DNA from: Bacteroidota bacterium
Lineage (GTDB): Bacteria; Bacteroidota; Bacteroidia; Bacteroidales; UBA4417
Reading direction: 5' to 3'
NCBI GenBank assembly: GCA_037128115.1
Contig: JBAXXB010000003.1
Location: forward strand, 1 to 46,871
DNA: 46,871 nt
The notes under the pieces are model-generated. The model was not told the DNA's origin. It saw only the letters and a list, made by a program, of their open reading frames with translations, and made no database searches. The position numbers and the translations under genes are program-made. Within the stretch, counting starts at the first letter, position 1, and every line of letters begins with the position of its first letter. Of this stretch, positions 6,784-37,792 are shown in pieces.

Positions 6784-6801
6784 TACTTAAGATTCAATAC
6801 A

Positions 6802-7246: not shown

Positions 7247-7382
7247 CACTAAGCACAATGCACAATGCACTAAGCACTAAGCACAATGCACTAAGCACTA
7301 AGCACTAAGCACAATGCACAACGCACAATGCACAACGCACTAAGCACAACGCACTAAGCACAACGCACTAAGCACAATGCAC
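7247..7382. repeat. Heptamer tandem array, 19 units plus a partial unit
   Basis: Contiguous units CACTAAG, CACAATG and CACAACG. Confidence 0.97.
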
Positions 7383-7443
7383 CAGATTTAATACAATCAA
7401 CAATATTCTAAAACAGAACCAAATAATACTAAATACCAGTACA

Positions 7444-8520: not shown

Positions 8521-8681
8521 AAAGTGGTTACTAGTTTTGGAAAAAGTTAAGCGGGAGCAGAGCAAACAAATCAAAATGCCCTTTATACAGAGTTTCTCGG
8601 ATAAGAACCGCTCAGACTCCTATAACTTGAAAAGCTGAACATTGTTAAAGATATCATTGGGCTCTCATAGTATTAAGCTGT

Positions 8682-15034: not shown

Positions 15035-15069
15035 GGTCGCTATTCGTGAATGATTGGTTTGTGAAAAGT

Positions 15070-16044: not shown

Positions 16045-16064
16045 CTATGGCTGGTTTTGATGTT

Positions 16065-16092
16065 GCCGTTATGCAAATGTATTCATATTGAA
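16065..16092 (-). promoter_or_regulatory. wtpA -7 promoter (TACATTTG, 16081-16074) overlapped by a ModE-like box
   Basis: CGTTAT-N12-ATATTG at 16067-16090 versus the ModE core CGnTAT-N12-ATAnCG. Confidence 0.55.
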
Positions 16093-16303
16093 CCGTCTTC
16101 CGGGAAAGGAAAGTGATAAATGTTACCGGTAATACAACCTGTAATTCACAGTTTTTTCTGCAGGATCACTGGCGATCGTTTCGTTAGGTACTCTTAAACC
16201 CAAATTAAATGATTCAATAGCAGCTAAATGCATGGATTGATACAAATACTCGCCAGGTAATTTCAGAAAACAGATGAGCCGCCGGAATTTTATTTCGGGG
16301 CAT

Positions 16304-17311
16304 CTAATTCACAAACATTATCGATTCTACCGATTTTATAGCCCTGTCGGAGAAAAAGTCTGCGGCAGGAAAAACCTGGAAATCACCCCCGTCAGCCCCT
16401 TTTTTGAACGGTACAACCAGGAATTCGTCCTGGTCGTTACGGTTCATGACTTCGCTGAAACTGAAGGCGGCATGATAACCATCCTTGCCTGCAATAATAA
16501 ACAAACCGGTTTTCAGGCTTTTTTCATCCACCTTCACGTATTTTGAAAGCAAGTCTTTCAGTAAAATCCCCTTGAATGGAGTGGTGCCGTGAATTCCGCG
16601 CCCCCTGCCGTAAAATACTGCCGGGTAGGTGAGTTTCTCAAATTCTGCTGGCAATTCACTGATGGAATCTAAAATATTTATTCCGTTTGAAACCAGGAAA
16701 CTGCCGCTGTTCATCGGGTTCATACCCTTGTTGATCAGGTATTTGCCGGAGTAAGATTTAACAGTGATCCTGGTCGGATTGCTGATATTCCTGTGTGTAA
16801 GCAGGTCGGAAGCTACTACCAGCCTGCAATCGGTCGGAAGCGGCCATAGGTCTTTTGTTTTGGAAGGAACGATACGTGCAACCTGGGAGGCTACCAGGAT
16901 TTCATGCCGGTGTACGGGGTAATAAATCTCCCCCCAACTAAAAATGACTTTTTCACCCTCATTGTTTTCAATTTCGACATATAAATCGATAATAGGAGGG
17001 AAGTCTGCTTCGTTTTTCTTCTTCAGTACTGCCTTGTTCAAAATATCGTAGAGCGAGTATCCATCGTAGCGATAGGCGCCTACAAACTTGTCCTTGCCAT
17101 CCTGTAAGAGAGTTTCTTTTACTATCACTGACCGGAGAGGCAATGATTCGAGATCAGCAGATCCGGGATTGGAAATTTCGCCCAGGATTTCTATCACCGG
17201 CATCTTTAGCTTGATAGTTTCTGCATCATCATAAAAATCGTTGGTCTGGGCTTTTATAGCAGGAATAGAAAGCAGGAAGATTGCGATCAGGGCAGGAATC
17301 AATTTTTTCAT
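16304..17311 (-). CDS. Exported protein with two molybdopterin-oxidoreductase-like domains
   Basis: Signal peptide from ATG 17311 ending KA-Q; repeats YDGYSLYDIL...GEKVIFSWGEI and FKGILLKDLL...GKDGYHAAFSFSEV. Confidence 0.6.
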   Translation of the reverse strand: MKKLIPALIAIFLLSIPAIKAQTNDFYDDAETIKLKMPVIEILGEISNPGSADLESLPLRSVIVKETLLQDGKDKFVGAYRYDGYSLYDILNKAVLKKKNEADFPPIIDLYVEIENNEGEKVIFSWGEIYYPVHRHEILVASQVARIVPSKTKDLWPLPTDCRLVVASDLLTHRNISNPTRITVKSYSGKYLINKGMNPMNSGSFLVSNGINILDSISELPAEFEKLTYPAVFYGRGRGIHGTTPFKGILLKDLLSKYVKVDEKSLKTGLFIIAGKDGYHAAFSFSEVMNRNDQDEFLVVPFKKGADGGDFQVFPAADFFSDRAIKSVESIMFVN

Positions 17312-17387
17312 CAGGGATAGAATTAAATTATTGCTTTCGGTTTTGAAAGTGTCAGTTCGCGCACTATATGCCATCAATTAGGCAAAC

Positions 17388-19769
17388 TTAGAGATTAACA
17401 CCCACTTCGGCAGTAATAAACCTGCCCGGGCAAACTGCATACTTGCTGTCATAATACTTTGCATCCAGCAGGTTTTGTATGTTCAGGGAAACTTTATACC
17501 GCTTTTTGATGGTTTTCCATAACTTCAGGTCCAGGGTTGTATAGGCCGGGTACTTGTCGGAAAGCAGGATTTCATCCCACACATTCTGGTCGTTAATAAA
17601 CATGCAGCCCGTGTAATGAACAAGCAAACTGGTATTTACAATACGGTTGATCCAGTTGGCTCCGGCTGTAAAAATATGTGCGGGAATATCGGTGAAAAAC
17701 CTTCCGGCCAGGTTTATAGTATCGTTGCCTGAAATCTTATGATAAGCCAGGATTAAAGAATGCGTATACGCATAATTGGCAAAAATGCTCAGTGAGGATA
17801 ATATATCATATTTGACTTCGGCTTCCAGGCCATAGATTTCCACGTCGCTGATGTTGGCCCTTACGAAGATGGGCCTGTCGCCGAAACCCATATCAATGGT
17901 CTGACCATTGCTTACGTAGTATTGAAAATCTTTTCCGCGGGAGTAGTAAACTGAAGTTGTAAAAGTCGATTTTTCAGTTGGTTTCAGATCGATTCCTGTT
18001 TCGTAATTGCTGAGGTACTCAGGTTTGATGGCCGGGTTCGCAATCTTGAACCCGCCTTTAATCCTGCCTGAGCGGCACAGGTCATCCAGCACCGAGGGCC
18101 TGAGTCCGCGTGAGTACATTACATATACCCGGCTGGTTTCGTTCCATTTATACTGAGCTGAAACACGCGGACTTACAGCATTCCAGTTCTGTACCGGCAT
18201 ATCGGGCACCTGGTAACCCATCATAAACTCCGTTTCCATAGTAGGATTTTCGATCCGGAACGATCCATCATAGAAGGAAGCCATATCGAACCTTAGCCCG
18301 GCTATGAGCCTGACCTTATCCTGTAGCAATTTAATCTCATCCTGCGCAAACAGGGCATAGGTGCTCATTTTACCCTGGTTGTAGACAATGTCAGTAGATG
18401 TGTAATATTTATCGTATGCATCCACACTACCGTTCTTAAAATCGAAGCCGCCGGTAAGTACCTGGTGATCGCCAACAGCAGTGCTCAGTGATGAGAATAA
18501 GCCGTAATCGGTGCGGGTCGACAGTACATTATACCAGGTGTAGTCATCCTTCATGTATTCATTCACCTTTTTGTATTTTTCGGTAAGCCTGTAAAGGGAT
18601 GTATTCAGCCTGAACTTTTTGAGTGTTCCGCGGTAGTTAAGAATGATGCCGTACGAATCATGATCGGTGGTGTTGCCTTCGGGCTGGAATTCTTTTTCAC
18701 CCGTTCCACGCCTGTCGTTGTAATAATTCACGCTTGCTTCTATGGTGTGCTTCCCGCCTATTGAATAACCGGTTTTGAAATTCAGTCCGGCTTCCTTCAT
18801 GTTGGACTTAATAATGAAAGGATTAGCATTTCTATCAGATTCTGATTGGGTGATATAACCATCACTTTGTTTAGCCGAAAGGTTGGCCATCCAGTACCAG
18901 GAGTCCGATGCCTTTTTAACCTTTATTTTCCCGCCGGTATTTACCCGTCCACCCAGGGTGTTAAATGTCCCGTACTCGAGGGATGCATTCAGAAAGGATT
19001 TACTCTCAGGGACTTTCGTTATAATATTGATAATCCCGCCCATGGCATTGCCCCCATACACCGCGGAGCCGGCACCCTTTGTAATTTCTATCTTATCGAC
19101 GGAGTTCATATCAATCATATTCCAGTCGACTGTACCTCCATCCGATTTATTGATCGGGATTCCATCCATCAGCACCAGTACCCGGCCCTGTTCCTTTCCG
19201 CTCATGCCACGCATGGTTACAATTCCTTTGGTGCTGAAAATACCGAAGGGCCTGCTGTAGTTGATACCCGGGGCATATTTAAGCGCTTCGTCAATATTCT
19301 GCATAGGCATGCTGTTCAGCATTTTAGGCGAAATAAGATTCACTCGTACCGGGGCATTCAGGATGCGGTTATCAGTACGTGTGGCCGTTATGACTATTTC
19401 ATCCATAGGAATGGATGCAGGGAAAATGGAAAAGGCAGCCAGGCTATTTTCACCCGGTTTTAGCAGGGTCTTATAATGAAATGTCTCAAAACCCACATAG
19501 CTGACAGTGATCAGGGCTGAATCGGAAGCCAGGTTGCAGAGACGAAAACTGCCGTCATGATTGGAAGTGTTAAGCGAAGAGGATACCAGGATAGTTGCAT
19601 CGTAAACCGGTTTCCCGTTAGCAGCATTTAAAATCTTCCCGCTTAAACACGATTGCCCGCTAAGTTGAAAAGATTGAATAAGAAAAAAGATGACTATTAC
19701 AGGAAACAACAGATTTGTCGAAGACCGGCCGGAAAATATACTGCTTTGAACTCCCTTATTATGCTGCAT
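17388..19769 (-). CDS. TonB-dependent outer-membrane receptor
   Basis: Carboxypeptidase-regulatory-like N-domain, DEIVITATR, plug RVLVLMDGIP / IEITKGAGSAVYGGNAMGGIINIIT, C-terminal NLLDAKYY...PGRFITAEVGVNL. Confidence 0.95.
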   Translation of the reverse strand: MQHNKGVQSSIFSGRSSTNLLFPVIVIFFLIQSFQLSGQSCLSGKILNAANGKPVYDATILVSSSLNTSNHDGSFRLCNLASDSALITVSYVGFETFHYKTLLKPGENSLAAFSIFPASIPMDEIVITATRTDNRILNAPVRVNLISPKMLNSMPMQNIDEALKYAPGINYSRPFGIFSTKGIVTMRGMSGKEQGRVLVLMDGIPINKSDGGTVDWNMIDMNSVDKIEITKGAGSAVYGGNAMGGIINIITKVPESKSFLNASLEYGTFNTLGGRVNTGGKIKVKKASDSWYWMANLSAKQSDGYITQSESDRNANPFIIKSNMKEAGLNFKTGYSIGGKHTIEASVNYYNDRRGTGEKEFQPEGNTTDHDSYGIILNYRGTLKKFRLNTSLYRLTEKYKKVNEYMKDDYTWYNVLSTRTDYGLFSSLSTAVGDHQVLTGGFDFKNGSVDAYDKYYTSTDIVYNQGKMSTYALFAQDEIKLLQDKVRLIAGLRFDMASFYDGSFRIENPTMETEFMMGYQVPDMPVQNWNAVSPRVSAQYKWNETSRVYVMYSRGLRPSVLDDLCRSGRIKGGFKIANPAIKPEYLSNYETGIDLKPTEKSTFTTSVYYSRGKDFQYYVSNGQTIDMGFGDRPIFVRANISDVEIYGLEAEVKYDILSSLSIFANYAYTHSLILAYHKISGNDTINLAGRFFTDIPAHIFTAGANWINRIVNTSLLVHYTGCMFINDQNVWDEILLSDKYPAYTTLDLKLWKTIKKRYKVSLNIQNLLDAKYYDSKYAVCPGRFITAEVGVNL

Positions 19770-21849: not shown

Positions 21850-23982
21850 TTATAAATTCTGATCGTAATATTCAGCCAGTTTGCTGTAAAGATGCAGCCG
21901 GTCGGTCCCGCTTACATTATGTTCGTGCTGGGGATACACAAAATAATCTACCTGTTTGCCTTTCCTGATGCAGGTCTGTATGAACTGCAGGCTGTTCTGC
22001 CAAACAACCGTGTTATCCTGGGCACCTTGAATTACAAGCACTTTGCCATCAAGCTGGTCCACGTAATTCAACAGGCATGCCTTCTTATAGCCCTCAGGAT
22101 TCTGCTCCGGAGTATCCATATAGCGTTCGCCATACATCACCTCATAGTATTTCCAGTCAACAACCGGGCCTCCGCAGGTGGCTACCTTGAAAACACCAGG
22201 GTTGCGCATTTTGAGTGTCAATGTCATAAAGCCGCCGTAGCTCCATCCGTCAATGCCCATGCGGCTTGAATCCACAAAAGGCAAAGATTTCAGGTAGTTG
22301 ACGCCGACCATCTGGTCCTTGCTTTCTATGTCTCCAAGATGCCGGTGGATGATATGCTCAAAAGCCGTTCCCCGGTTTGAAGTTCCGCGGTTGTCGAGTG
22401 TCCAGACAATGTATCCTCTGGTGGCCAGGTAATTAAAATACAGGTTGGCACCACCCAGCCAGGTATCGGTTACCAGTTGCGAATGAGGTCCTCCATACAC
22501 ATATACAAGCACCGGATATTTTTTTGCCGGATCAAACCCACGGGGAAGCATCAACCTGCCGTACAGGTCGTTCCCGTCATCAGCCTTAAGTGTTACAAGG
22601 GTGGTTTCGCCGAGTTTGTAATCTTTTAAAGGATTCAGGTCTTCGGAGATAACGCATATAGTTTCACCTTTCTCGTTAAGGAGTGAATTTCTTGAACCTA
22701 CAACCATGCTGCTTAAATGATCGAGTATATAATGTCCATCGGGGGACACAAAAGTAGTATGCGTACCTTTGCCTGAGTTGTATTTCGTGGTATTGCCGGT
22801 TTTAAGGTCGACGGAATAAAGTTGGCGTTCCAGCGGGCTTTCCTGGGTTGAGGTGTAAAAAATCCTGGCCTCTTTAGAATCAAAACCCTGGTAAGAGGTT
22901 ACTTCCCATACTCCATGGGTCACTTGTTTGATCAACTTGCCTTCGGTGTCGTATAAATAAAGGTGGTTATACCCGTCCCGCCGGCTTTGCCAGATGAATT
23001 GCGAGGGGTTGGTTTTCAGGAAATATAAACCGTTAAGGGGTTCAACATATTCCTTGTTGGTTTCTTCAAAAAGCGTTTTCACGAAATCACCGGTGGAGGC
23101 ATCGTACTTGTTCAGCCACATATGATCCTGGTCGCGGTTGAGAACAGCGATGAAAATATATTTTTCGTCCGGGCTCCAGGTAATATTAGTGAGGTATTGC
23201 TCGGCGGGTTCGCCGGTTTTTAGGAAGACCGTTTTGTTCTTTACAGGGTCAAAAACCCCGACTGTGACCTGATGACTTGCCATGCCAGCCATTGGGTAGC
23301 GGATGTATTCCACTTTAGCAACCCGTTCGTCGATATTTACAAGGGGGTATTCAGTCACCATGGTTTCGTCCATACGGTAAAATGCCAGGAAGTTGCCTTG
23401 CGGCGACCAGAATGTGCCTCCATCGATACCAAATTCGTTGCGGTGTACCGTTTTGCCGTTCACTATGCCCTTTATGGAATCGCTTGTTACAGCTATTGTT
23501 TTTCCTGCAACCGAAACGTAAAGATTGTTTTCTTTGGTAAAGGCAACTCTGCCGGAAATAGGTTCAAAATCTACATTTTCGGCCTCGGATTCATAACTAT
23601 TTGCCATTTCCAGGTCGTTTGTTAGCGCATGGAACCGGAAAATTTTCGAATCGTTGGTATACCTGAATGTATTTTCATCTTCCCACCTGATGGCAGGCAT
23701 GCTTTTTAATTTCTTCTGCTGTTTCTGATCAACTATGAGGTTGAGGTTCCCGAGGGTAAGTATGGTGTCGGTAGTTCCTGCTTTCAGCAGGTTTTGAACC
23801 AGGCAGTTATTGGCATTCCATGTAAAATGGGTGTTGCTTCGCCACTGGACATTTGACCATTGAGCAGGATAGAGTTTCCGGTTCATCAGGTCATCAATCG
23901 CCAGTTGTTTTTGCTGGGCGAAAAGCGAAGGCACAAGTAATAAGAGCAGACCAAGTAGGGCAGAGGATGATTTTTGAGACAT
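21850..23982 (-). CDS. S9B peptidase (DPP-IV family, prolyl tripeptidyl peptidase-like)
   Basis: Signal peptide, VYGGP, catalytic GWSYGG, DNTV, HEHNV. Confidence 0.9.
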   Translation of the reverse strand: MSQKSSSALLGLLLLLVPSLFAQQKQLAIDDLMNRKLYPAQWSNVQWRSNTHFTWNANNCLVQNLLKAGTTDTILTLGNLNLIVDQKQQKKLKSMPAIRWEDENTFRYTNDSKIFRFHALTNDLEMANSYESEAENVDFEPISGRVAFTKENNLYVSVAGKTIAVTSDSIKGIVNGKTVHRNEFGIDGGTFWSPQGNFLAFYRMDETMVTEYPLVNIDERVAKVEYIRYPMAGMASHQVTVGVFDPVKNKTVFLKTGEPAEQYLTNITWSPDEKYIFIAVLNRDQDHMWLNKYDASTGDFVKTLFEETNKEYVEPLNGLYFLKTNPSQFIWQSRRDGYNHLYLYDTEGKLIKQVTHGVWEVTSYQGFDSKEARIFYTSTQESPLERQLYSVDLKTGNTTKYNSGKGTHTTFVSPDGHYILDHLSSMVVGSRNSLLNEKGETICVISEDLNPLKDYKLGETTLVTLKADDGNDLYGRLMLPRGFDPAKKYPVLVYVYGGPHSQLVTDTWLGGANLYFNYLATRGYIVWTLDNRGTSNRGTAFEHIIHRHLGDIESKDQMVGVNYLKSLPFVDSSRMGIDGWSYGGFMTLTLKMRNPGVFKVATCGGPVVDWKYYEVMYGERYMDTPEQNPEGYKKACLLNYVDQLDGKVLVIQGAQDNTVVWQNSLQFIQTCIRKGKQVDYFVYPQHEHNVSGTDRLHLYSKLAEYYDQNL

Positions 23983-25122: not shown

Positions 25123-26079
25123 TTAAAAGACTGCTTTTGCGATTTTACAGATGTTGTCCGACTTGCCCATAGTGTAAAAGTGTAGCACGGGTACTCCGAA
25201 ACTGATCAGTTCGCGGGATTGCTGTATGGCCCATTCTACCCCAACCTGTCTTACCTGTTGGTTATCAGAGCATTTCTCTATTTCTTTTACCAGTTCATCC
25301 GGTATGTCAATGGAAAAGGTACGGGGCAGGGTCGAAAGCTGCGATTTCAGTGATATTGGTTTTAAGCCTGGAATAATGGGAATATGGATACCTGCTTCGC
25401 GGCATGCGTTCACAAACTCAAAATATTTCGAATTATCGAAAAACATTTGCGTGACAATGTAGTCGGCGCCGGCATCCACTTTATCTTTAAGGTGCTGTAA
25501 ATCGGTTGCCAGGTTAGGCGATTCCATATGTTTTTCGGGGTAACCGGCTACACCTATACAGAAATTTGTTGGAACCGGGTTCAGCATTTCTTCCTCCAGG
25601 AATTTTCCCTGGTTCAGTTTAATCACCTGCTTTACCAGGTCGATGGCGTAGCGGTGCCCGTCGGGGTCGGGTTTAAATTGTTTTTCGCCCCTCAGGTTAT
25701 CGCCCCTGATCAGTAAAATATTGTCTATGCCCAGGAACTGAAGGTCGATCAGCGCATTTTCAGTTTCTTCCTGGCTGAACCCACCGCAAATCAGGTGAGG
25801 AACCACGTCGAGCCCATATTTGAATTTAATGGCGGCGGCAATCCCCACTGTCCCGGGCCTCTTCCTCACGGTCCTGCGTTCGAGCAACCCGTCCTCACGT
25901 TCTTTAAAGATGACCTCTTCCCTGTGATAGGTTACGTCGACGAAGGAAGGATTGAATTCAATCAGTGGTTCAATGGTCTGGTAGATGGAATTGATGTTCT
26001 CCCCTTTCAGTGGAGGGAGTAACTCGAAGGTAAAAAGGGGTTTGCCTTTACTGTTATCAATATATTCGGTGACTTTCAT
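25123..26079 (-). CDS. metF: 5,10-methylenetetrahydrofolate reductase
   Basis: FELLPP, PHLICGG, RGD, VAGYPEKH, VTQMFFDN, HFYTMG. Confidence 0.95.
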   Translation of the reverse strand: MKVTEYIDNSKGKPLFTFELLPPLKGENINSIYQTIEPLIEFNPSFVDVTYHREEVIFKEREDGLLERRTVRKRPGTVGIAAAIKFKYGLDVVPHLICGGFSQEETENALIDLQFLGIDNILLIRGDNLRGEKQFKPDPDGHRYAIDLVKQVIKLNQGKFLEEEMLNPVPTNFCIGVAGYPEKHMESPNLATDLQHLKDKVDAGADYIVTQMFFDNSKYFEFVNACREAGIHIPIIPGLKPISLKSQLSTLPRTFSIDIPDELVKEIEKCSDNQQVRQVGVEWAIQQSRELISFGVPVLHFYTMGKSDNICKIAKAVF

Positions 26080-26202: not shown

Positions 26203-29200
26203 TTAATAATTCAGGTTCGATGCCAGTAATTTTTCTGTTTCGCTGACAGACAGGTTTTTGCGGGAAGCATAATCTTCAACCTGTTCGCGGCTGATACGGC
26301 TGATTGCAAAATACTGTGCTTCGGGGTTTGCAAAATAGTACCCGCTCACGGCTGCGCCTGGGTACATGGCGTAATTTTCGGTTAAAGTAATGCCTGTTTT
26401 TTCGGCATCGAGCAGGTTGAAAATAGTTCCTTTCTCGCTGTGCTCAGGACAGGCCGGGTAACCCGGTGCGGGACGTATGCCGGCATAGCCTTCGTGTATA
26501 ATTTCTTCAATTCCCAGGTTCTCATCTTTCGCATATCCCCAGTATTCTTTGCGTACCTTCTCATGCAAGAGTTCGGCAAAGGCTTCGGCGAGCCTGTCGG
26601 CTAAAATTTTAACCATGATGGCATTGTAATCGTCGTCCTGATCTTCGAAGTGTTTCACCCACTTTTCGATTCCAAGCCCGGCGGTTACTGCAAATAGACC
26701 GATGTAGTCATTATACCCGCACTCTTTTGGTGCAATGAAATCGGCTAGTGATAAGTTAGGGATGCCTTTTTCTTTTTCTTCCTCGTTACGCAGGAAATGG
26801 AGCATGGTATTCCTGCTTCCTTCAACCGATAGTTCCAGGCTGTCGCCCACAGCGTTAGCGGGAAAAAAACCGAAAACACCATTTGCACTTACCATGTGTT
26901 CATCAATAACCCTCTTTAACAGGAACTGGGCATCGTTAAACAGTTTACGCGCTTCCACACCTTTCAGGGGATCTTCGAAAATAGCCGGGTATTTCCCGCT
27001 GATCTTCCAGGCATGGAAGAAGAAAGTCCAATCGATATAACGGCTGATTTCCTGAAGCGGATAATTTTCAAGATATTTTACTCCGGTAAATGCTGGCGTA
27101 ACGGGCTTGTAGGTTTTCCAATCGATTAAAAAGCGGTTGGCACGTGCTTGTTCCAACGACAAATAGGTAATGCCGGCCCTGGTACTTTCGTGCTTATGGC
27201 GCAGCTGTTCATATTTCAAACTAACTGAGTCAACGAAAGGCTTTTTGCCATCCTGCGAAAGCAACGCTGCTACAACACCTGTAGCCCTTGAAGCATCACG
27301 CACATGCACAACCGGGTGGCTGTATTCGGGAGCAATCTTGACGGCGGTATGCATTTCGCTGGTGGTAGCCCCGCCAATCAACAGGGGGATGCTGAATCCT
27401 CTTCGTTCCATTTCGGAAGCTACGAAACCCATTTCCTCCAGCGAAGGGGTAATTAAACCGGATAATCCTATAATGTCGACTTTTTCCTTAATGGCGGCAT
27501 CCAGGATTTTCTCAGCATGCACCATCACTCCGAGGTCGACCACCTCATAGTTATTGCATCCCAGGACTACTCCTACAATATTTTTACCAATATCGTGCAC
27601 ATCTCCCTTTACGGTGGCCATGAGAATTTTACCTGCCGAACTCCTCACCCCCTGCACTTTTTCGGCTTCAATATAAGGTAGCAGAACAGCAACCGCTTTC
27701 TTCATTACCCTGGCACTCTTCACAACCTGGGGCAGGAACATTTTCCCGGCCCCGAAAAGGTCGCCTACCACGTTCATGCCTGCCATCAGGGGGCCTTCAA
27801 TAACTTCGAGTGCCCTGGCAAAATGAGGGCGTGCTTCTTCAACATCGGTAGCCACATCTGCATCAAGCCCGTGTACCAGGGCGTATGTCAGCCTCTCGTT
27901 CACAGGTAATCCTCGCCATGCTTTTGCAGCGGCTTCGGTCTTTTCGGTGGCCTTCATCTTCGAAGCATAGCCGATCAGCCTTTCGGTTGAATCGGGCCTG
28001 CGGTTAAAAAGCACGTCTTCAATAAGTTCGAGTAAGTCAGCCGGAATGTCATCGTAAACCGGCAGGTTCCCGGCATTGACAATTCCCATATCCATGCCTG
28101 CTTTTATGGCATGGTAAAGAAAAACGGAATGCATGGCTTCGCGCAGGTCATCGTTTCCACGAAACGAAAACGAAAGGTTGCTGATGCCACCGCTGATCCG
28201 GGCATAAGGAAGGTTTTTCTTTATCCAGGTAATGGTATTAATAAAATCGACAGCGTAATTGTTGTGTTCTTCAATACCGGTGGCGATAGCAAGTATATTC
28301 GGGTCGAAAATGATATCCTCAGGGGGCACGCCCAACTCATCGACCAGTATATGATAAGCCCGGGAACAGATTTCGGTCCGGCGTTCGAAGGTACTGGCCT
28401 GGCCTTGTTCGTCGAAAGCCATTACTATCATAGCTGCCCCGTAATTCCTGATTTTCTGTGCATGTTCCCTGAAGGCATCCTCACCTTCCTTCATACTGAT
28501 GGAATTCACAATGGCTTTACCTTGCAGGCATTTCAACCCGGCTTCTATAACCTCCCATTTCGAGGAATCTATCATAATGGGCACCCTGGCAATTTCGGGC
28601 TCGGCCATCAGCAGGTGAAGATACCTGGTCATTTCGCGTTTGGCATCGAGCAAGGCATCGTCCATATTGATATCCAGCACCTGGGCACCGGCATCTACCT
28701 GTTGGCGGGCGACGGATAAGGCTTCATCGTATTTTTCCTCACGAATGAGGCGGGCAAATTTCTTAGAGCCTGAAACATTGGTCCGTTCACCAATATTTAT
28801 GAAATTGCTGTTCTCGAAAACCATCAAGGGCTCAAGGCCGCTGAGCCTCAAATGTTTTGGGATAGCTGGAATATGCCGTGGTGTTGATTGTTCCGCAACT
28901 TTGCAGAGTTCCCTAATATGTTCAGGTGTTGTGCCGCAACATCCGCCGATGATATTAACCGATTTATTATGGAGTATAGGTTGAATATGATGAGCCATTT
29001 GCATGGGTGATTCGTCATATTCCCCGAATTGGTTCGGCAGTCCGGCGTTGGGATAAGCGCTTACATAAAAAGGTGCTTTCCTCGAAAGCTCTTCTATAAA
29101 TGGATTGAGTTGTTCCGCCCCGAGTGAACAATTGAATCCGACGCTTAACAGGTCAATATGTGAAACCGAATTCAGGAAAGCCTCGGTAGTTTGCCCCGAA

Positions 29201-29865
29201 AGGGTTCTGCCGCTGGCATCGGTTATAGTTCCCGAAACCATGACAGGCATGCGTAATTTCTTTTCAGCCAGGACCTCGTTAATAGCATACAAGGCGGCCT
29301 TGGCATTAAGCGTATCGAAAATAGTTTCAACCAGCAGCAAGTCCACGCCACCATCGATCAGGCCGCGAACCTGTTCCTGGTAAGCAACCCGGAGCTGATC
29401 GTAACTAACTGCACGAAATCCCGGATCATTTACATCGGGCGACATGCTGGCTGTCTTGCTTGTAGGGCCCACGGCACCAGCAACAAAGCGTGGTTTCGCC
29501 GGGTTGAGCGAAGTAAATTTTTCGGCTTCGGATACAGCGATTCTTGCGGCAGCCACATTCATTTCATATACAATGGGTTCCAGCTGGTAGTCCGCCATGG
29601 AAACCGAGGTGGCATTAAATGTATTGGTTTCAATAATATCAGCCCCGGCTTCGAGGTATGCGCGGTGTATTTCACTGATCACATCCGGCCGGGTGATGCA
29701 AAGTAAATCGTTGCATCCTTTCAGGTCAATTCGGTGTTTGGCAAAACGAACGCCTCTGTAGTCGGATTCCGAAAGCTTATAACGTTGTATCTCGGTACCC
29801 ATGGCGCCATCCAGCACCAATACTCTATTCTCTAAAACTTTATATATGTTATCCTTTTCAATCAT
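26203..29865 (-). CDS. metH: Cobalamin-dependent methionine synthase
   Basis: [23 protein letters not shown]12 motif DVHDIG, activation domain [10 protein letters not shown]. Confidence 0.98.
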
Positions 29866-29975
29866 GCTGCTTGTATGTTAATCCGTTCTGCATGCTTAAA
29901 ACAAAGCAGCAGCTCAGAAGTTTTGAACTCAACACATTCAGTTTCTCCGCATTCCGGGAGCAGGAGTGTGTTTTA

Positions 29976-30081
29976 ATTATAATCTCCGCCAAAGGCGGAT
30001 CAGGTATTGGCACCTTACACACCGTGTGGTGGTGGTTGCCAGAGGTTCGGTGAGCCTGTTCTCTCCCCCCTTCTGTATAAT
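29976..30081 (-). ncRNA. SAM-I (S-box) riboswitch upstream of metH-metF
   Basis: Minus strand reads ATTATACAGAAGGGGGGAGAGAACAGGCTC...CCTCTGGCAACC...AAGGTGCCAATACCTG...TATAAT: P1 ATTATA/TATAAT, GCAACC and GGTGC cores, methionine-gene context. Confidence 0.9.
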
Positions 30082-30120
30082 CCAAACCTCCTTAGTTTAT
30101 GAAAGGAATATTTGAAGCTG

Positions 30121-30328: not shown

Positions 30329-30359
30329 ATCTTAAAACTGCATTCGGCAGTTTTAAGAT
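30329..30359 (-). terminator. Hairpin downstream of the SAM hydrolase gene
   Basis: ATCTTAAAACTGC-ATTCG-GCAGTTTTAAGAT. Confidence 0.65.
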
Positions 30360-30450: not shown

Positions 30451-31353
30451 TTATTTTTTTGAGATAAGGGTAACTTCCACATCCCAGTTATTACCGCTTT
30501 CGATCTTATACACTTTTGCAAAGCTCCCCTGGTTTAACGCGAATGATAATTGCATCAGGCTATTCAGATAGGTTACCGGCTTCCCTTTTTCAACCGCGCC
30601 GAAAGTTTGACTGTAAGGAGCGTTGCCTTCATAGACCTTAGTTTTATCATGATAGATAATTACATGCATCAGGTCTCCATACCGGGGATTTAGTTGTTTT
30701 ACCAAATCGGCTGTGATATTAGTCCAAACATTTCCATATTGAATATCAAGAATAGAAATGTTGCCTTTGAGTTTTCCCCCATCCAACACAGCTTTCTGAT
30801 AAGGGATGCTGACTACTTGTTTGGCCAATTCCTTGCCAACCTGTTCGAAGGTTATGGCACCTGCTGCCAGCCTGGCAGCTGTATAAGCATATACATCCCG
30901 GCCATGGAAAGTGTATGATTTTTCGGAATTAGCCCTACGGTTAACGACTTCGTCAATTTCCCGGACTTCAGCTATGCCAAGACTTTCGGCTACCAGGGTA
31001 AGTGTGCCGTTATCGGGTGTAACAAAAAAGTGACCGCTGTTAGTTTTTAATACGACCGATTTCCGGGTGGTGCCCACGCCTGGATCGACCACCGATACAA
31101 AAACGGTGCCTGCAGGCCAGTAAGCCGCGGTTTGTTCTAAACGGTAAGCGGCTTCCCAAATATTATAAGCAGGAATTTCGTCGGTAAGATCGTATAATTT
31201 TAAATCGGGCGAAACACCGCACGCAACACCTTTCATTGCTGAAACGGCGCCGTCTTTTAATCCAAAATCGGTTTGAAAGACAACTATTTTGTTTTGTGCT
31301 GACACTTGATATACAACGAAAAGAATTAACAGTGAGGTGATAATTTGTTTCAT
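30451..31353 (-). CDS. SAM hydroxide adenosyltransferase (DUF62 SAM hydrolase) with signal peptide
   Basis: QTDFG..DGAV, VVDPGVGTTR, TPDNG, TFHGRD (Asp-Arg-His triad), DIQYGN; N-terminus MKQIITSLLILFVVYQVSA-Q. Confidence 0.9.
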   Translation of the reverse strand: MKQIITSLLILFVVYQVSAQNKIVVFQTDFGLKDGAVSAMKGVACGVSPDLKLYDLTDEIPAYNIWEAAYRLEQTAAYWPAGTVFVSVVDPGVGTTRKSVVLKTNSGHFFVTPDNGTLTLVAESLGIAEVREIDEVVNRRANSEKSYTFHGRDVYAYTAARLAAGAITFEQVGKELAKQVVSIPYQKAVLDGGKLKGNISILDIQYGNVWTNITADLVKQLNPRYGDLMHVIIYHDKTKVYEGNAPYSQTFGAVEKGKPVTYLNSLMQLSFALNQGSFAKVYKIESGNNWDVEVTLISKK

Positions 31354-31420
31354 GACAAGCAGGTTAAGTTAAATTATGAAAGTTTTCTGTTTAGTAAAAG
31401 GTAGTGATTCAAGCCTGTAG

Positions 31421-32710
31421 CTATAAAATAATGTCTGATTTACCTGAAAGTTTCGTGTCGAACGAATAGAAAATCAAACCTAGTACTATGGTTGATAATC
31501 CGACCATACTTTCTTTAGGGTGAGCGACAAAGGTGAAGTAGCAGATGTAGATCCCAAAAGCTAAAAACACCGTCGGGAAAATCCAGAAGTATTTTCCTTT
31601 AAATATGTGCCGCTTCATGGATGGAATTGTAAATACCGTTGCTACGGCTATGGTACTTAAAATTTGAAGCAGGAAGGATGCATAGATAAAAATCTGTTCA
31701 AATTCGCCTGTCAAAATGATAAGGATTGCGATAAAAGCATGAACCCATAATGCAAGATAAGGAATGTCGTTCTTCGTTTTATTCATAAAGCTCCAGAGTC
31801 TATTTTCCTTTGCAGTTGCAAAACTCACCCTGGAACCTATCCATAAATATCCACTAATAGTGGCAATTAATTGTAGGGCTATAAAGAAACTCACCCATTT
31901 GGCACCGTTCAATCCCAGGAAACCCCTGGCGGATATGGATGCAACATCTTCCTGGTTAATTAAGGAAACTATGGTTGCATGTTTCAGGAAAACATAATTG
32001 ATGAAAACATATACCAGGGTCACAAACAAGGTGCCGACAATCAGCGATTTAGGTAGGTTTTTTGTTGGATTTTTAATTTCCCCAACTATGTAAGATGCTG
32101 AATTCCAGCCGGTATAAGCAAAAGCAACAAACACGAGTGAGCTGGCAAATTCCGGCATCTGTATTTCTTTTTTCCAGCCGGCACCAAAATCCAGTCCATT
32201 CATGGCATCAGGAGCAATATACAAACCCAGTCCGATCAATGCCAAAACAAATAAAACTTTCAGCAATGTAAACAGGTTGTGAAAATCACTGCTTGTTCTC
32301 AGGCTAAAAGACTGGGAGAGGGCCACCAGTATGATAACACCAATAGCGAATCCTTTGCCTAAGCCCAATCCGAAAATCTGCAGGTATTTACTCATGGCCA
32401 GGGCTGCCAGCGAAACCGGTGCCGAAAAACCCACAATCAGCGATACCCAACTGCTCAGGTATCCGAATACCGGATGAAAACCCCGGGATAAATAGATATA
32501 ATCACCTCCCGTTTCTTTGTAGTAATTTCCTAATTCAGAATAGCAAAAAGCGCCGAACAAGGCTAAAACACCCCCGATTGACCAAAGTAAAATTATGGTA
32601 TAGGTGTTGGTCAAACTGGCAACCTGGTATCCTAAGGATGTGAAAACCCCGGTTCCTATCATGTTTGAAACTACTAAGGCTGTGGCCGTGAGCCAGGTGA
32701 TTTTTTTCAA
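31421..32710 (-). CDS. APC-family amino acid permease
   Basis: About 12 TM segments, NMIGTGVF, YSELG...GGDYIYL, FAYTGWN; TTG start. Confidence 0.9.
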   Translation of the reverse strand: MKKITWLTATALVVSNMIGTGVFTSLGYQVASLTNTYTIILLWSIGGVLALFGAFCYSELGNYYKETGGDYIYLSRGFHPVFGYLSSWVSLIVGFSAPVSLAALAMSKYLQIFGLGLGKGFAIGVIILVALSQSFSLRTSSDFHNLFTLLKVLFVLALIGLGLYIAPDAMNGLDFGAGWKKEIQMPEFASSLVFVAFAYTGWNSASYIVGEIKNPTKNLPKSLIVGTLFVTLVYVFINYVFLKHATIVSLINQEDVASISARGFLGLNGAKWVSFFIALQLIATISGYLWIGSRVSFATAKENRLWSFMNKTKNDIPYLALWVHAFIAILIILTGEFEQIFIYASFLLQILSTIAVATVFTIPSMKRHIFKGKYFWIFPTVFLAFGIYICYFTFVAHPKESMVGLSTIVLGLIFYSFDTKLSGKSDIIL

Positions 32711-32731
32711 GTTTTCGCGAAGGTGTTAAAT

Positions 32732-32767
32732 AAAAAACTTTGTCAAGGTTTTTAGCCTTGACAAAGT
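32732..32767 (-). terminator. Hairpin plus U-tract between the receptor and permease genes
   Basis: ACTTTGTCAAGG/CCTTGACAAAGT stem followed by six T on the minus strand. Confidence 0.65.
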
Positions 32768-32791
32768 ATTATTTCAGTTTTGAGAGGAGGA

Positions 32792-35446
32792 TCAGAGACT
32801 GCAACTTATTCTTCCAAAAAAGTAAGATCCTGTAGTGCCCATTTGAACCGGGGCATATTTAAATACGCCAAAATAGCTGTTTTCATAAACCTGTAGATCA
32901 GGAAAAACATCGAACAGGTTATTTGCACCCACAGCAAACAGGATTTTAGAACTGATTTTATAGGAAACGCTCAGGTCGGTAACTACTTTGCCTGCATGTT
33001 TCTGGTCAATACCAAAAGGTGCTCCACTCCGGGTAACCTCACCAAAATAGGTGTTGCGTAATAAAACGGAGAGCTTCTTAACATCGTAATTCAGGGCAAG
33101 TGTTCCTTTGCTTCTGGGAGTGTTGGTCTCGATAAGGCTTCTTTCCTGAGGTCCATAATAAACTTCTTCCTGGCCAATGAATGCAGTTGGAATGTAATTT
33201 AACTGATCATCCACCTTGTTCTTGTTGTAGTTGTACAGCAATGAAACATTGAGGTTGCCACCGGCTACCTTAAAAGTATAATCAATCACCAGGTCAAGTC
33301 CCTTGGTTGTAGTGTTGATGGCGTTGGTAAAGAAACGGCCTGTTTGCGCCCCATACTGAGCGAATAAAGCCTGGAGTTCAGGAACAGGTTCCCCGTAAGG
33401 ATCATTTCCTAAATTGCCGGTGAGGATAATCCGGTTTTTGATGTTAATCTGGTAGGCATCGATGGTAATATTTAATTTTTTGATGGGTGTATATACAAAA
33501 CCGAGGCTATAATTATTGGATGTTTCCTCTTTCAAGGCAGGAATTCCAAGCTCCTTTGCAAGTTCACTGTCGGTCCTGAAAATGCCGGAATTGAGCATTA
33601 CTCCATCCACCACATCGGTTGCGATATTGTTGAAATAGCTTTGCTGTAACGAAGGAGCCCTGAATCCTGTGCTCATCGAACCACGGACAAAAAAGTTATC
33701 GGTAATCTTATACCTGGAACTTAATTTCCCGGTTGTGGTATTGCCAAAATCCGAATAGTTTTCATAGCGCACGGCTACACCTACAAGGAATCTCTTCGTA
33801 ATGTCCGCTTCAACGTCAGCGTATGCACCTATGCTGGATCTTTGTTTGTTTACTGCATTCAATAGCGAGAAGCCCGGGAATGATTGTGCTCCACCATCTT
33901 TGTAGGAAGCTTCTTCTCCGGCTTTGATCTGGTAACCTTCCAGGCGAAACTCAGCGCCGAAAGCTACATTGAGCCCGCTGAAAATACTTGCATATAAGCG
34001 GGAGGCATCGGCATTGATGGTGTTTTGTAAAAACGAGTGACTTCCTGCGTTAAATACAGTAGGGCTGCTTGCACCCATGGAAGCATTGTTCGTATTAGCC
34101 ACTTCGTATTTGAAGGTATTTTTTCCAATGGTATTGCTTACATCCAAATTCCAGTCGGAGAGCTTAAACCGTAAACCTGAAATCAGTGAAAGATCGCTGA
34201 TGTCGGATTTTAATTCGGGTTGAAAGCCATAAGGGAATAACTCCGGGACTACATTCCCGGTTTCACTCGGTAAGCGCCTGAAACCAAACCCTATACCGTT
34301 TCGTTTGCTGGCACCACCCGAAAAATATAATTCAATGTTCTTGTTTAACGGGATGGATGAGTTTAAGAATCCCTGTATGTTTTGTATTTTGGCGTCACCT
34401 ACCTGGAAATTAAAATCGTCGCGCGTAAGGCCGGCAGCGGCAATTGCATCGTCATCAATCTTACGGGCAGCAGCCGCATCGTCACAAAAATCGTAAGAAA
34501 AATAGTTGTTATATGCCGACTGATCAAAAATGATGAGGTTGTTGTTCTGAGCACGGTTGGTTTTTTCGCGGTTGTTAAATGCAGCTGTCAGGTTAATGAA
34601 CCCACCTTGTTTCCCCAGTTTGGAACCATAATTCAGGTTCAAATCGGTTGTCTGTCCATCGTTTCGCGATGTCTGGCCATACGTTGCTTCGGCCTGGAAA
34701 CCAATATTGTCATTCAATATCAGGTTGATAACGCCGGCAATGGCATCCGAACCATATTGAGCTGCTGCTCCGTCACGAAGAACTTCGATGCGTTTAATCG
34801 CCGAAGCCGGGATGGCACCTAAGTCAGTTCCTACCGAACCGTTTCCAACTGTGTTCTGATAATTAACCAGGGAAGTAGTGTGTCGTCTTTTGCCGTTCAC
34901 CAATACTAATACCTGGTCAGGACCCAATCCTCTCAGCGATGCCGGGTCAATGTGCTCGGTTCCGTCGGATGCTGACTGACGATTGGAATTAAAGGAAGGA
35001 ATGAGATATGTTAATATGTCGTTTGCCGAATTCTGAGGAGTAATGGTTCTCATTTTGATTAAATTCACAACATCAACCGGGACAGGGGTTTCCATTTTGC
35101 TTAATTTTGGATTCCTGCTACCAACCACAACAAATTCAGTGAGACTGGTGCTCTGTAAAACAAGCAGTACTTCAACGTAGTCGCTTTTAGCCACTACCTC
35201 TTTAGTTTCATAACCAACGGAGGATATAAGTAAGGTTGGCAAGATTATTTTCGTTGTAAGAGCGAATTTCCCTGCAGCATCGCTTATGGTGCCAATGTTA
35301 GTGCCCTTGATAACAATTGAGACAAATTCCATGGGTTCTCCTTTTTCATTTTTCAGGAGTCCCTTTATCACATGATTTTGTGAATAGAGCAGGGTGCCCG
35401 AAAAGATTAAAATGGCTGTTACGAAAAGTTTCAGAGAGTTTTTCAT
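32792..35446 (-). CDS. TonB-dependent receptor
   Basis: N-domain, EFVVVGSR, LRGLGPDQVLVLVNGKRRH, IEVLRDGAAAQYGSDAIAGVINLIL, GANNLFDVFPD. Confidence 0.95.
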   Translation of the reverse strand: MKNSLKLFVTAILIFSGTLLYSQNHVIKGLLKNEKGEPMEFVSIVIKGTNIGTISDAAGKFALTTKIILPTLLISSVGYETKEVVAKSDYVEVLLVLQSTSLTEFVVVGSRNPKLSKMETPVPVDVVNLIKMRTITPQNSANDILTYLIPSFNSNRQSASDGTEHIDPASLRGLGPDQVLVLVNGKRRHTTSLVNYQNTVGNGSVGTDLGAIPASAIKRIEVLRDGAAAQYGSDAIAGVINLILNDNIGFQAEATYGQTSRNDGQTTDLNLNYGSKLGKQGGFINLTAAFNNREKTNRAQNNNLIIFDQSAYNNYFSYDFCDDAAAARKIDDDAIAAAGLTRDDFNFQVGDAKIQNIQGFLNSSIPLNKNIELYFSGGASKRNGIGFGFRRLPSETGNVVPELFPYGFQPELKSDISDLSLISGLRFKLSDWNLDVSNTIGKNTFKYEVANTNNASMGASSPTVFNAGSHSFLQNTINADASRLYASIFSGLNVAFGAEFRLEGYQIKAGEEASYKDGGAQSFPGFSLLNAVNKQRSSIGAYADVEADITKRFLVGVAVRYENYSDFGNTTTGKLSSRYKITDNFFVRGSMSTGFRAPSLQQSYFNNIATDVVDGVMLNSGIFRTDSELAKELGIPALKEETSNNYSLGFVYTPIKKLNITIDAYQINIKNRIILTGNLGNDPYGEPVPELQALFAQYGAQTGRFFTNAINTTTKGLDLVIDYTFKVAGGNLNVSLLYNYNKNKVDDQLNYIPTAFIGQEEVYYGPQERSLIETNTPRSKGTLALNYDVKKLSVLLRNTYFGEVTRSGAPFGIDQKHAGKVVTDLSVSYKISSKILFAVGANNLFDVFPDLQVYENSYFGVFKYAPVQMGTTGSYFFGRISCSL

Positions 35447-35551
35447 AAGTTATTTTAGTTTAGTTGAAATGAATAATCCTTTAAAAAGTGTATTGCTTGG
35501 TTAGAGGCTGTTTTTTTATTAAAAATCTGTATTAATTAGATTTACAAGGTT

Positions 35552-35644
35552 ATAAGTGTGACCAGAGAGGTGGGATACTTAATCTGAGTCCCCATTTTTC
35601 ACATTTTGCCAGCCTGAAGTCGAGGGCCATTTGTCACCTCTTAT
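35552..35644 (-). ncRNA. Candidate structured leader RNA, class not recognised
   Basis: Starts about 5 nt after TAACTTTG (35656-35649); closing stem ATAAG..GTGAC/GTCAC.CTTAT; two inner hairpins; alternative AGAGGTG/CACCTCT pairing. Confidence 0.4.
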
Positions 35645-35648
35645 TCGG

Positions 35649-35656
35649 CAAAGTTA
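35649..35656 (-). promoter_or_regulatory. -7 promoter TAACTTTG
   Basis: Exact TAnnTTTG about 200 bp upstream of the receptor start. Confidence 0.65.
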
Positions 35657-36340
35657 AACAGGACTAACTAATTATAAAGTTTCACCCTATACTTGGTTTC
35701 CGGTTAAATAATGAAAGGTAATTTGACTTATCCTATCAATTTACACATTTCAGTTATTTGTACTAAAAATTATCTGGCTATGACTTCAAGGTACGGCAAA
35801 AACATCACACTGTCAACACATTATAAAAAAACACTTTAGGAGCCATACAAAGTACGAAAAGTATCTAATTGCGTTTTTAGGCAGATTTTGATATCAAAGG
35901 TAAAATTTTACCAGTACAATTAAAATGCTTTACCTCCTTCGGAAAGCAAACTTAGCTTTTTATTAGAATTATAATGATTCTATAAATTTTAATTTTCAAC
36001 AAACTACTGTTTGCCATCTAAAAAGTGCAGTCATCCTAGGTTCTCTTTTCACATTCCGACAGGCTGGATCAGGGGCTCTCTCTTCGATTGACTTAAACGA
36101 TTGGACGAATTACAAAATGATTGCGTAAGTCTGGAAGAGTACATGGTGAGTAAATCTGTAAAGCAGATCAGCTTTATGTTGTCAATCATATCGCAAATCA
36201 CAATAATTCCCAAAATTGAAATTTACAATCATGTGCAGGAATGATAGTTAGACTGTGTGTGATTACAGAATCCTTCCCTGGATTCCGAACAATTCATCCA
36301 ATTTAGAGTTATAAGTTTAAATAAATTTAGAAATAAATTG

Positions 36341-36348
36341 TACCTTTG
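36341..36348 (+). promoter_or_regulatory. -7 promoter TACCTTTG of ahcY
   Basis: Exact TAnnTTTG just upstream of ATG 36371. Confidence 0.75.
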
Positions 36349-36370
36349 CACCCCTAAAAATAATAGTATA

Positions 36371-37792
36371 ATGGAACAACTTACTTTTGCGACTACTATG
36401 AAATATAAAGTCCGTGATATAACGCTGGCCGAATGGGGCCGCAAGGAAATTGAAATTGCCGAGAAGGAAATGCCGGGGCTGATGAGTATCCGCCGTAAAT
36501 ACACTGCGGAGAAACCCTTGCAAGGTGCCCGCATAACCGGCTCACTGCATATGACCATTCAAACAGCAGTATTAATTGAAACATTAGCCGACCTGGGTGC
36601 AGAAGTACGTTGGGCCAGCTGTAATATTTTTTCTACACAGGATCATGCTGCTGCAGCCATTGCCGCTGCCGGTATCCCGGTTTTTGCCTGGAAGGGTGAA
36701 AGCCTCGAAGAGTACTGGTGGTGTACCAACAAGGCTCTTGCTTTCGAAGGCGGAAAAGGCCCGAACCTCATCGTTGATGATGGAGGCGATGCTACCCTAT
36801 TGATTCATAAGGGATTTGCTGCCGAAAATAACCCTAAACTGCTCGAAGAAGAAGCTTCGAACGCGGAAGAAGCAGTAATTATGCAACTGTTGCGTGATAC
36901 CTATGTGGAATCACCGATGAGATGGCATGGTGTGGTAGCCGAATGGAAAGGCGTTTCGGAAGAAACTACCACAGGCGTGCATCGCTTATACCAGATGCTG
37001 GAAAAAGGTGAATTGCTGATACCTGCTATCAATGTAAACGACTCAGTAACCAAATCCAAGTTCGACAATCTTTACGGTTGCCGCGAATCCCTGGCCGACG
37101 GAATAAAACGTGCGACAGATGTTATGCTTGCGGGTAAAGTTGTGGTTGTTTGCGGTTACGGCGATGTTGGAAAAGGCAGTGCCCGTTCGATGCGTGCTTA
37201 TGGAGCACGGGTAATTGTTACCGAAATTGATCCTATCTGTGCCTTACAGGCTTCGATGGAAGGATTCGAAATTACTACGGTTGAAGATGCGCTTGCCGAA
37301 GGGAACATTTATGTTACCACTACCGGCAATAAGGATGTGATCACCGTAGAGCATATGCTTAAAATGAAGGACCAGGCCATTGTATGTAATATCGGCCATT
37401 TCGACAACGAAATACAGGTGGATAAGCTCAACAACCTGGCTGGTGTTGAAAAGATTGAAATCAAACCACAGGTGGATAAATACCTGTTCCCCGATGGTCA
37501 TGCCATATTCATGCTTGCCGAAGGCCGCCTGGTGAACCTGGGATGTGCAACCGGGCATCCATCGTTTGTTATGAGCAATTCATTCTCGAACCAGACACTG
37601 GCCCAGCTCGACCTCTGGAATAACAACTACGAGATCGGTGTGTACCGTTTGCCTAAATACCTCGACGAAGAAGTTGCCCGCCTGCACCTCGAGCAGTTAG
37701 GTGTTAAACTTACCGTACTTACTCCCGAACAGGCTGAGTATATCTCAGTTCCGGCCGAAGGTCCTTATAAAGCGGATCATTACCGTTACTAG
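36371..37792 (+). CDS. ahcY: Adenosylhomocysteinase
   Basis: [57 protein letters not shown]; start at 36371 or 36398. Confidence 0.98.

Follow-up and report, generated by a model that had tools for sequence, protein, structure and literature searches.

Import followed by processing is the logic of the Bacteroidetes polysaccharide utilisation loci and of the NAD route of Haemophilus, in which periplasmic NadN and e(P4) act before uptake through PnuC. Intact S-adenosylmethionine (SAM) is taken up by DMT-type carriers in Rickettsia and Chlamydia and by Sam3 in yeast, an APC permease which illustrates that this superfamily is able to carry sulfonium compounds. Cytoplasmic DUF62 enzymes such as PH0463 of P. 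horikoshii, MJ1651 of M. jannaschii, StDUF62 of S. tropica and the protein of structure 2zbu let activated water attack C5' of SAM, which yields adenosine and methionine. These hydrolases have long been known, but their physiological role is disputed, and passages of a 2025 paper (PMC12120602) suggest that hydrolysis of (R,S)-SAM may not be the true function of a cytoplasmic member. Here we analyse a stretch of 46,871 nucleotides from a freshwater Bacteroidota genome (contig JBAXXB010000003.1 of assembly GCA_037128115.1; hereafter the window, whose coordinates are used throughout), in which three intact, co-oriented genes separated by short gaps on the minus strand were identified by gene calls and Pfam as encoding a TonB-dependent receptor, a permease and a DUF62 enzyme that carries an export signal. 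The logic proposed for this cassette is the same as that of the import-then-process systems, with entry through the outer membrane, splitting in the periplasm and uptake of the fragments by an inner-membrane carrier; unlike those systems, the window locus has no SusD, and a gene for the inner-membrane step is part of the locus in some lineages only. The carriers of intact SAM also acquire external SAM, but they bring it whole into the cytoplasm, whereas the window enzyme would destroy it before the inner membrane. Neither an exported DUF62 enzyme nor a SAM receptor was found in the literature that we searched, subscription journals being outside its scope, and an adenosyl sulfonium would be a substrate class new for a TonB-dependent receptor if the reading developed below is true.

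The DUF62 gene (30451-31353, minus strand) encodes a protein of 300 aa with both Pfam domains of the cytoplasmic family members, PF01887 (181.3 bits, cut-off 26.3) and PF20257 (70.7 bits, cut-off 25.5). It also has their triad and motifs in common, and the same chemistry would be expected of it; unlike them, it combines a conserved Sec signal peptide and a genomic tie to an outer-membrane importer with scores below the equivalog cut-offs. Among solved structures, the closest to it are those of hydrolase-type DUF62 proteins (2zbu, E = 5e-46); next comes the chlorinase SalL, whose alignment spans residues 20-289 of the window protein (E = 8e-37). With SalL and the fluorinase FlA the window protein shares the fold and the SAM-binding framework. 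Residues D90, R97 and H150 are aligned with the triad of the solved hydrolase-type proteins, and 2zbu has the identical three residues within the stretches VVDYGVGTSRK and FHGRD. According to passages of PMC4859513, the hydrolase triad is D68-R75-H127 in PH0463 and the family motifs are PxNGL and IDxxFGN. In the window protein the triad is spaced at +7 and +60 (vs +7 and +59 in PH0463), the motifs are kept as PDNGT-L and LDIQYGN, and the equivalents of D16 and N215 are D29 and N208. In a passage of PMC10491745, activation of water is ascribed to the His-Arg-Asp triad, which halogenases lack, and passages of this paper and of PMC4859513 use the triad to separate hydrolases from halogenases and report SAM hydrolysis for all characterised triad-bearing DUF62 proteins. 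Halogenases are recognised by halide-coordinating residues that replace the triad (T80-S158 in FlA, Y70-G131 in SalL); in the alignment with SalL, which carries Y, T and Y at the positions of D90, R97 and H150, these halide-coordinating residues were not found in the window protein, and the hydrolase triad occupies the halide-site residues instead. The score with the fluorinase model TIGR04507 is 100.9 against a cut-off of 400. None of the three triad residues varies among the 84 exported homologues that were aligned, namely those of the window, of 79 of the 80 related loci introduced below (L051, whose contig ends inside the gene, was excluded) and of four further genomes. D203 and N208 are invariant as well. 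These comparisons support the assignment of the window DUF62 as a hydrolase-type member of the family. Two other DUF62 paralogues are present in the same genome on other contigs. One (L002:1159-1935, minus strand) is a leaderless protein of 258 aa in which the His of the triad is replaced by Pro (TFPTRD vs TFHGRD), and the other (L003:1324-2238, plus strand) is a divergent protein of 304 aa whose leader (...LSVSSC) resembles that of a lipoprotein and in which the Asp of the triad is replaced by Glu and the His is matched by a gap. Since the triad is altered in both, the exported copy is the sole full-triad DUF62 in the window assembly.

The enzyme starts with a leader of 19 residues, MKQIITSLLILFVVYQVSA|QNK, which has the typical n-h-c organisation (residues 1-19, 31297-31353, minus strand) and is followed by the Pfam domain from residue 24 onwards. 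The signal peptide was called by inspection and by simple counts over the 84 homologues: Lys or Arg occurs in the n-region of all 84, Ala, Ser or Gly at position -1 in 82 and Gln at position +1 in 83, and column conservation averages 0.32 over the leader vs 0.82 over the mature part. Gln at +1 corresponds to the Q-rule that applies to substrates of signal peptidase I in Bacteroidetes (PMC5837995). Sequence inspection of the window protein revealed neither a lipobox Cys nor a type IX secretion tail, for which there is no space because the DUF62 domains occupy residues 24-290. Judged from these features, the enzyme is almost certainly exported, and in view of the conserved Sec signal peptide its expected site of action is the periplasm, a compartment that has no SAM pool of its own. 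Three elements of an earlier, sequence-only reading of this DNA were confirmed in this way, namely the three co-oriented genes between metH and ahcY (intact open reading frames (ORFs), Pfam domains and flank assignments), the Asp-Arg-His triad of the DUF62 enzyme and its Sec signal peptide followed by Gln (A|Q cleavage site and the counts above).

The receptor gene (32792-35446, minus strand) encodes 884 aa, with a leader that ends in ...LYS|QN, a CarboxypepD_reg-like domain, a Plug domain (PF07715, 68.2 bits) and a barrel (PF00593, 135.5 bits). It reaches 79.1 with the SusC/RagA model TIGR04056 (cut-off 368.25), and no SusD partner lies beside it, its neighbours being the permease gene and an intergenic region of 890 nt. 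The possibility that it is a BtuB vitamin B12 receptor was rejected on the score with TIGR01779 (70.9 against a cut-off of 599.7) and is also countered by the lack of a cobalamin riboswitch in the window and the 13 receptor-bearing loci scanned. Within its own genome, the next-best match covers the N-terminal domain only and scores 44 bits vs 1951 for the receptor itself. As there is no full-length paralogue, full-length matches at 33-72% identity can be treated as one receptor family; chance may explain adjacency to any receptor in this receptor-rich phylum but, for the same reason, not adjacency to this receptor family.

Using a scan with one genome per species, we took the best 80 of 440 DUF62 relatives (69-89% identity; Chitinophagaceae, Pedobacter, Mucilaginibacter and unclassified Bacteroidota), called and clustered the genes of their loci and mapped the window proteins onto them. 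A receptor of the same family is located on the same strand and at most three genes away from the exported DUF62 gene in 45 of the 80 loci, either immediately upstream (31), immediately downstream (8), two genes upstream (5) or three genes upstream (1). Of the 59 loci that extend for 3 kb or more in both directions, 37 have the receptor linked, and in the eight loci in which the enzyme gene precedes the receptor gene the two are 0-14 nt apart or overlap. A further pair, in genome G016, is divergent, with about 195 nt between the two genes and unrelated genes on either side; its receptor is 72% and its enzyme 62% identical to the window counterparts. Altogether, four receptor-enzyme arrangements were found, and they extend over both deep clades of a FastTree phylogeny of 47 family members. 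Clade A contains the receptors of the window, its relatives and G016 together with the Chitinophaga and Pedobacter receptors encoded downstream of the enzyme gene, clade B contains the Ferruginibacter-type receptors encoded upstream of it, and linked and unlinked members occur in both. In the enzyme tree, the window enzyme is nearest to enzymes without a receptor or with a clade-B receptor, on branches that do not reach the starred support level. The trees of enzyme and receptor are not congruent, which, given the weak branch support, hints at repeated re-pairing of receptor and enzyme. Collectively, the neighbourhood data make it a well-supported proposal that the exported, triad-bearing DUF62 works together with one particular TonB-dependent receptor, and they partly support a two-gene module of receptor and DUF62, a pair rather than a trio, as the conserved functional unit.

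Two neighbourhoods of this collection deserve description in their own right. A DPP-IV-type peptidase gene belonging to one cluster is located just upstream of the pair in eight Ferruginibacter-type loci (L024, L034, L042, L045, L052, L054, L055 and L057), with one unclustered ORF between them in L042; the window also has a DPP-IV-type peptidase gene (21850-23982, minus strand), about 6.5 kb from the enzyme gene, which may be coincidence or old synteny. In locus L092 of genome G194 (4898-8632), the exported DUF62 gene adjoins a nucleotide pyrophosphatase/phosphodiesterase gene and an alkaline-phosphatase fragment, a neighbourhood that hints at extracytoplasmic scavenging of nucleotides or nucleosides.

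The middle gene of the cassette (31421-32710, minus strand) encodes an APC-superfamily permease of the LAT/SLC7 type with 429 aa and a TTG start (PF13520, 151.2 bits), which is present in single copy in the window genome. Its best model is TIGR00911 (166 against a cut-off of 701.8), and its nearest solved relatives are BasC (6f2g, E = 2e-36) and human SLC7 light chains. By analogy with the LAT family, which carries neutral amino acids, its cargo could be methionine, and the sequence analyses conducted here gave no sign that it carries SAM. The sequence-only reading had treated the three genes as a unit to be checked for conservation and had tied this unit to the adjacent methyl cycle; on both counts the comparison of loci speaks against it, as only the receptor-enzyme pair recurs. 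A same-strand permease was detected in only four of the 80 loci (L004, L005, L007 and L006, in the last of which the contig ends inside the permease gene), metH is found downstream in three and ahcY upstream in three, and all of these belong to the window's small clade. The close relatives of the window are uncultured Bacteroidales or Bacteroidota represented by metagenome bins, and one member of the clade, L008, with an enzyme 86% identical to that of the window, encodes no receptor and no permease within 2 kb upstream. Being confined to one small clade, the metH/ahcY context counts as a single evolutionary event, and the link to the methyl cycle is a local elaboration in one lineage, not a general rule. 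A different LAT-like permease, 24-25% identical, is encoded directly downstream on the opposite strand in seven of the 80 loci, all from one other lineage. We also searched an even draw of 400 Bacteroidia genomes, of which 92 contain permease orthologues (26-47% identity), usually one each; none was found in the seven other enzyme-carrying genomes of this sample. At the 20 loci examined out of 29 in other genomes, the neighbours of these orthologues have no link to methionine, a peptidase M23 gene being encoded upstream at 8 of the 20, and no riboswitch was detected within 1.5 kb of the orthologues.

The methionine-cycle genes beside the cassette form a separate downstream unit, metH (26203-29865, minus strand) and metF (25123-26079, minus strand), which is headed by a SAM-I riboswitch (29974-30083, minus strand; 67.2 bits, E = 1.3e-13). 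This is the sole SAM-I element of the window; it lies outside the cassette, and its arrangement with metH-metF was also found in L004. A second SAM-I riboswitch of the same genome (G000 contig C310:5188-5295, in L089; 71.9 bits) is located downstream of a gene for a Cys/Met-metabolism enzyme dependent on pyridoxal phosphate (PLP), at a contig end that cuts off the regulated gene. No metK (PF02773) was found in the window assembly, which consists of 524 contigs and is 84.9% complete; at this completeness, and with a SAM-I riboswitch at the end of C310, the negative is uninformative and absence of metK cannot be claimed.

Considering these data together, we propose that the locus encodes a module for the import and subsequent periplasmic cleavage of SAM or a closely related adenosyl sulfonium, complemented by a lineage-specific permease that may take up the methionine set free, and our confidence in this proposal as a whole is evenly balanced between acceptance and doubt. 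The receptor would bring a scarce adenosyl-sulfonium compound inwards across the outer membrane, SAM being the likeliest cargo, possibly as the epimer mixture expected outside cells. The periplasmic enzyme would then cut this cargo at C5' into adenosine and methionine, and inner-membrane carriers would take in the released pieces. For the window lineage, the insertion of a LAT-type permease between the two genes and the position of the cassette beside methionine-cycle genes would fit methionine as the valued product. In light of the chemistry of the characterised triad-bearing members, import of SAM or another adenosyl sulfonium followed by periplasmic cleavage is the simplest mechanism, and it is membership of the family that points to SAM as the substrate. 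A more specific version, in which the locus represents the first TonB-dependent route of SAM uptake and the receptor delivers environmental, largely S-racemised SAM to the periplasmic DUF62 so that methionine and adenosine are released for import, is tentative and in our estimation falls somewhat short of an even chance. Receptor-mediated import followed by periplasmic cleavage of SAM had already been suggested from the window alone; what stands of this suggestion is the tie between exported enzyme and receptor, seen in 45 of 80 loci and in the divergent G016 pair, while the part concerning the permease and the methyl cycle applies to one clade.

If the proposal is true, bacterial scavenging via TonB-dependent receptors would extend to SAM or a closely related molecule, with a bearing on the cross-feeding of cofactors in soil and freshwater communities. 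In the more specific version, the long-puzzling DUF62 hydrolases would acquire a physiological function, the release of nutrients, and the preference of some of them for the biologically inactive (R,S) epimer would be explained. Because the exported clade cannot act on cytoplasmic SAM and has an importer as a recurrent neighbour, the question can be tested directly in culturable Chitinophaga and Pedobacter strains.

A number of observations weigh against the import-then-cleave proposal. The pairing is frequent among the window's closest relatives, but it is not universal, and it is patchy beyond them. No receptor is encoded nearby in 34 of the 80 loci, several of which are on short contigs, and the genes other than the receptor that surround the enzyme gene are lineage-specific, functionally unrelated and heterogeneous among loci. 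In the even sample of Bacteroidia (thresholds of E <= 1e-50 for the enzyme and E <= 1e-60 for the receptor family), the exported enzyme is present in 7 of 400 genomes and in none of the 12 same-order genomes listed, and the receptor is adjacent in only one of the seven. When a family receptor was sought anywhere in the genome (E <= 1e-40), four of these seven carriers had one and the other three had none. Conversely, the receptor family is present in 34 of the 400 genomes and the enzyme is absent from 30 of these, which indicates that the receptor family is independent of the enzyme and that its cargo may be broader or different. Among five genomes that were drawn from the best 80 and have a receptor-less enzyme locus, four encode a family receptor elsewhere; the neighbours of unlinked family receptors provided no functional clue, and no riboswitch was found beside five such receptors. 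Regulation does not connect the cassette with methionine either: no riboswitch or other SAM or methionine signal was found on it (35400-36400), no riboswitch lies beside the pair in the eight related loci scanned, and k-mer counts over the 300-nt upstream regions of all loci revealed no shared motif, only lineage-specific words. The enzyme itself scores far under the cut-offs of the NCBIfam (R)-SAM hydrolase equivalogs (NF058624, 131.6 vs 350; NF053629, 124.3 vs 470), which marks it as a member of the DUF62 family and not as an equivalog of a characterised enzyme. Finally, the window genome encodes four Cys/Met-metabolism PLP enzymes, so that methionine auxotrophy is not indicated.

Some of these points would be accommodated if the same architecture of import and cleavage served a cargo other than SAM, for example decarboxylated SAM, a SAM-derived natural product, a nucleoside-type antibiotic or another 5'-substituted adenosine with a good leaving group, in which case the pay-off would be adenosine or purine salvage or detoxification and not methionine. 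We consider this unlikely, though it is a contender to be taken seriously. The distance of the exported clade from the characterised equivalogs and the lack of a methionine or SAM regulatory signal on the cassette both argue for it, as do the phosphodiesterase and phosphatase neighbours of the G194 enzyme, a nucleoside hydrolase gene located a few genes off in Puia-type loci, and an invariant Leu of the exported clade at the residue aligned with SalL R243, which we take to bind the methionine carboxylate. The doubt that passages of PMC12120602 cast on (R,S)-SAM hydrolysis as a physiological role extends even to cytoplasmic DUF62 proteins and points in the same direction, whereas every characterised triad-bearing DUF62 hydrolyses SAM according to passages of PMC10491745 and PMC4859513, and the window protein retains the PxNGL and IDxxFGN motifs and the D16/N215 equivalents. 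An amino-acid permease at the locus in two separate lineages, and the setting of the window-lineage cassette among methionine-cycle genes, would likewise be harder to reconcile with a non-SAM cargo.

Two further explanations differ in how they connect the genes. If the full trio were one dedicated operon that feeds the adjacent methyl cycle through a methionine-specific permease, the co-orientation, the short gaps and the lack of promoter space between hairpin and permease would be expected, as would the flanking by ahcY and the riboswitch-controlled metH-metF unit, the LAT type of the permease and the retention of the arrangement in L004, L005, L007 and partly L006. We nevertheless judge this explanation quite improbable: trio and context occur in one small clade, of which L008 lacks them, the riboswitch is on metH and there is none on the cassette, and the permease orthologues, found in 92 of 400 genomes but in none of the seven other enzyme carriers, have unrelated neighbours and no riboswitches. 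At the other extreme, receptor and enzyme may have no pathway in common, with the receptor importing, for instance, a metal chelate, the substrates of the enzyme entering otherwise and adjacency reflecting inherited synteny. The 30 of 34 receptor-family genomes without the enzyme and the 34 of 80 enzyme loci without the receptor are in line with this, among named models the receptor is matched best by those of siderophore and haem receptors, all with scores far short of the cut-offs, and related genomes are non-independent observations. Inherited synteny, however, would hardly produce four arrangements that include both gene orders and a divergent pair and extend over two deep receptor clades, nor the tight spacing or overlap in the eight enzyme-then-receptor loci, and with roughly one receptor-family member per genome, chance adjacency is, by a rough estimate, expected to be far rarer than what was observed. 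We therefore regard a lack of any common pathway as very improbable, and the paired import-then-cleave module remains our preferred reading.

The cassette contains a terminator-like hairpin with a T-run between the receptor and permease genes (32727-32767, minus strand), composed of a 12-bp stem at 32737-32767 followed by TTTTTATTTA. Its folding energy is -18.3 kcal/mol (z = -6.4), it is kept in L004, L005 and L007 with compensatory A-T to G-C changes at two stem positions, and it ends 27 nt before the permease start, a TTG codon in three genomes and a GTG codon in L007. These features support its assignment as a conserved terminator-like element, which together with the non-ATG start of the permease gene probably keeps the two distal genes at a lower level. 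The earlier reading had suggested that the hairpin may lower distal expression; the element itself has gained support from its conservation, and lowered expression is consistent with the sequence. In L007, an insertion of about 260 nt with short tandem repeats separates the terminator hairpin from the permease start (L007:6375-6610).

The cassette has its own promoter region. A candidate Bacteroidetes -7 box, TAACTTTG (35649-35656, minus strand), lies about 200 nt ahead of the start codon of the receptor gene and was recognised by what we take to be the consensus, TAnnTTTG; its position is not conserved in the relatives because it falls in a part of the leader that is inserted in the window only. 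A riboswitch in the receptor leader was considered and rejected, as an Rfam scan of 35400-36400 at E <= 10 returned four chance matches to snoRNA and viral pseudoknot models. The ahcY-receptor intergenic region also contains two copies of a motif of about 21 nt, CTGnCnnAATGTGAAAA, which lie 450 nt apart (35596-35616 and 36046-36066, minus strand). We rejected the idea that this repeat is a conserved tandem regulatory RNA, since it occurs nowhere else in the window's genome and the leader segment that holds the proximal copy, about 170 nt long, is absent from the three closest relatives. At the other end of the cassette, an inverted repeat with 11-bp arms and a 5-nt loop (30331-30357, minus strand), about 95 nt past the DUF62 stop codon, may mark the end of the transcription unit; it was missed by the terminator scan because of its weak T-tail.

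Upstream of the cassette, the ahcY ORF has the opposite orientation and is separated from the receptor gene by the 890-nt intergenic region. It is listed from a TTG at 36338 (plus strand), but an in-frame ATG at 36371 appears to be the likelier start and would give a protein of 473 aa, the length called in L004 and L007. This ATG is preceded by TACCTTTG (36341-36348, plus strand), which matches the -7 box consensus used above. Elsewhere in the window, a second uptake cluster (13195-19769, minus strand) comprises genes for a TonB-dependent receptor (17388-19769), for an unassigned protein of 357 aa and for an ABC transporter whose binding protein is of the SBP_bac_11 type. The gene at 7444-8520 (plus strand) encodes a member of the bacterial archaeo-eukaryotic release-factor-like family 3 (PF18845, E = 3.5e-36) and is followed by the gene for a DnaJ-type protein (8906-9793).

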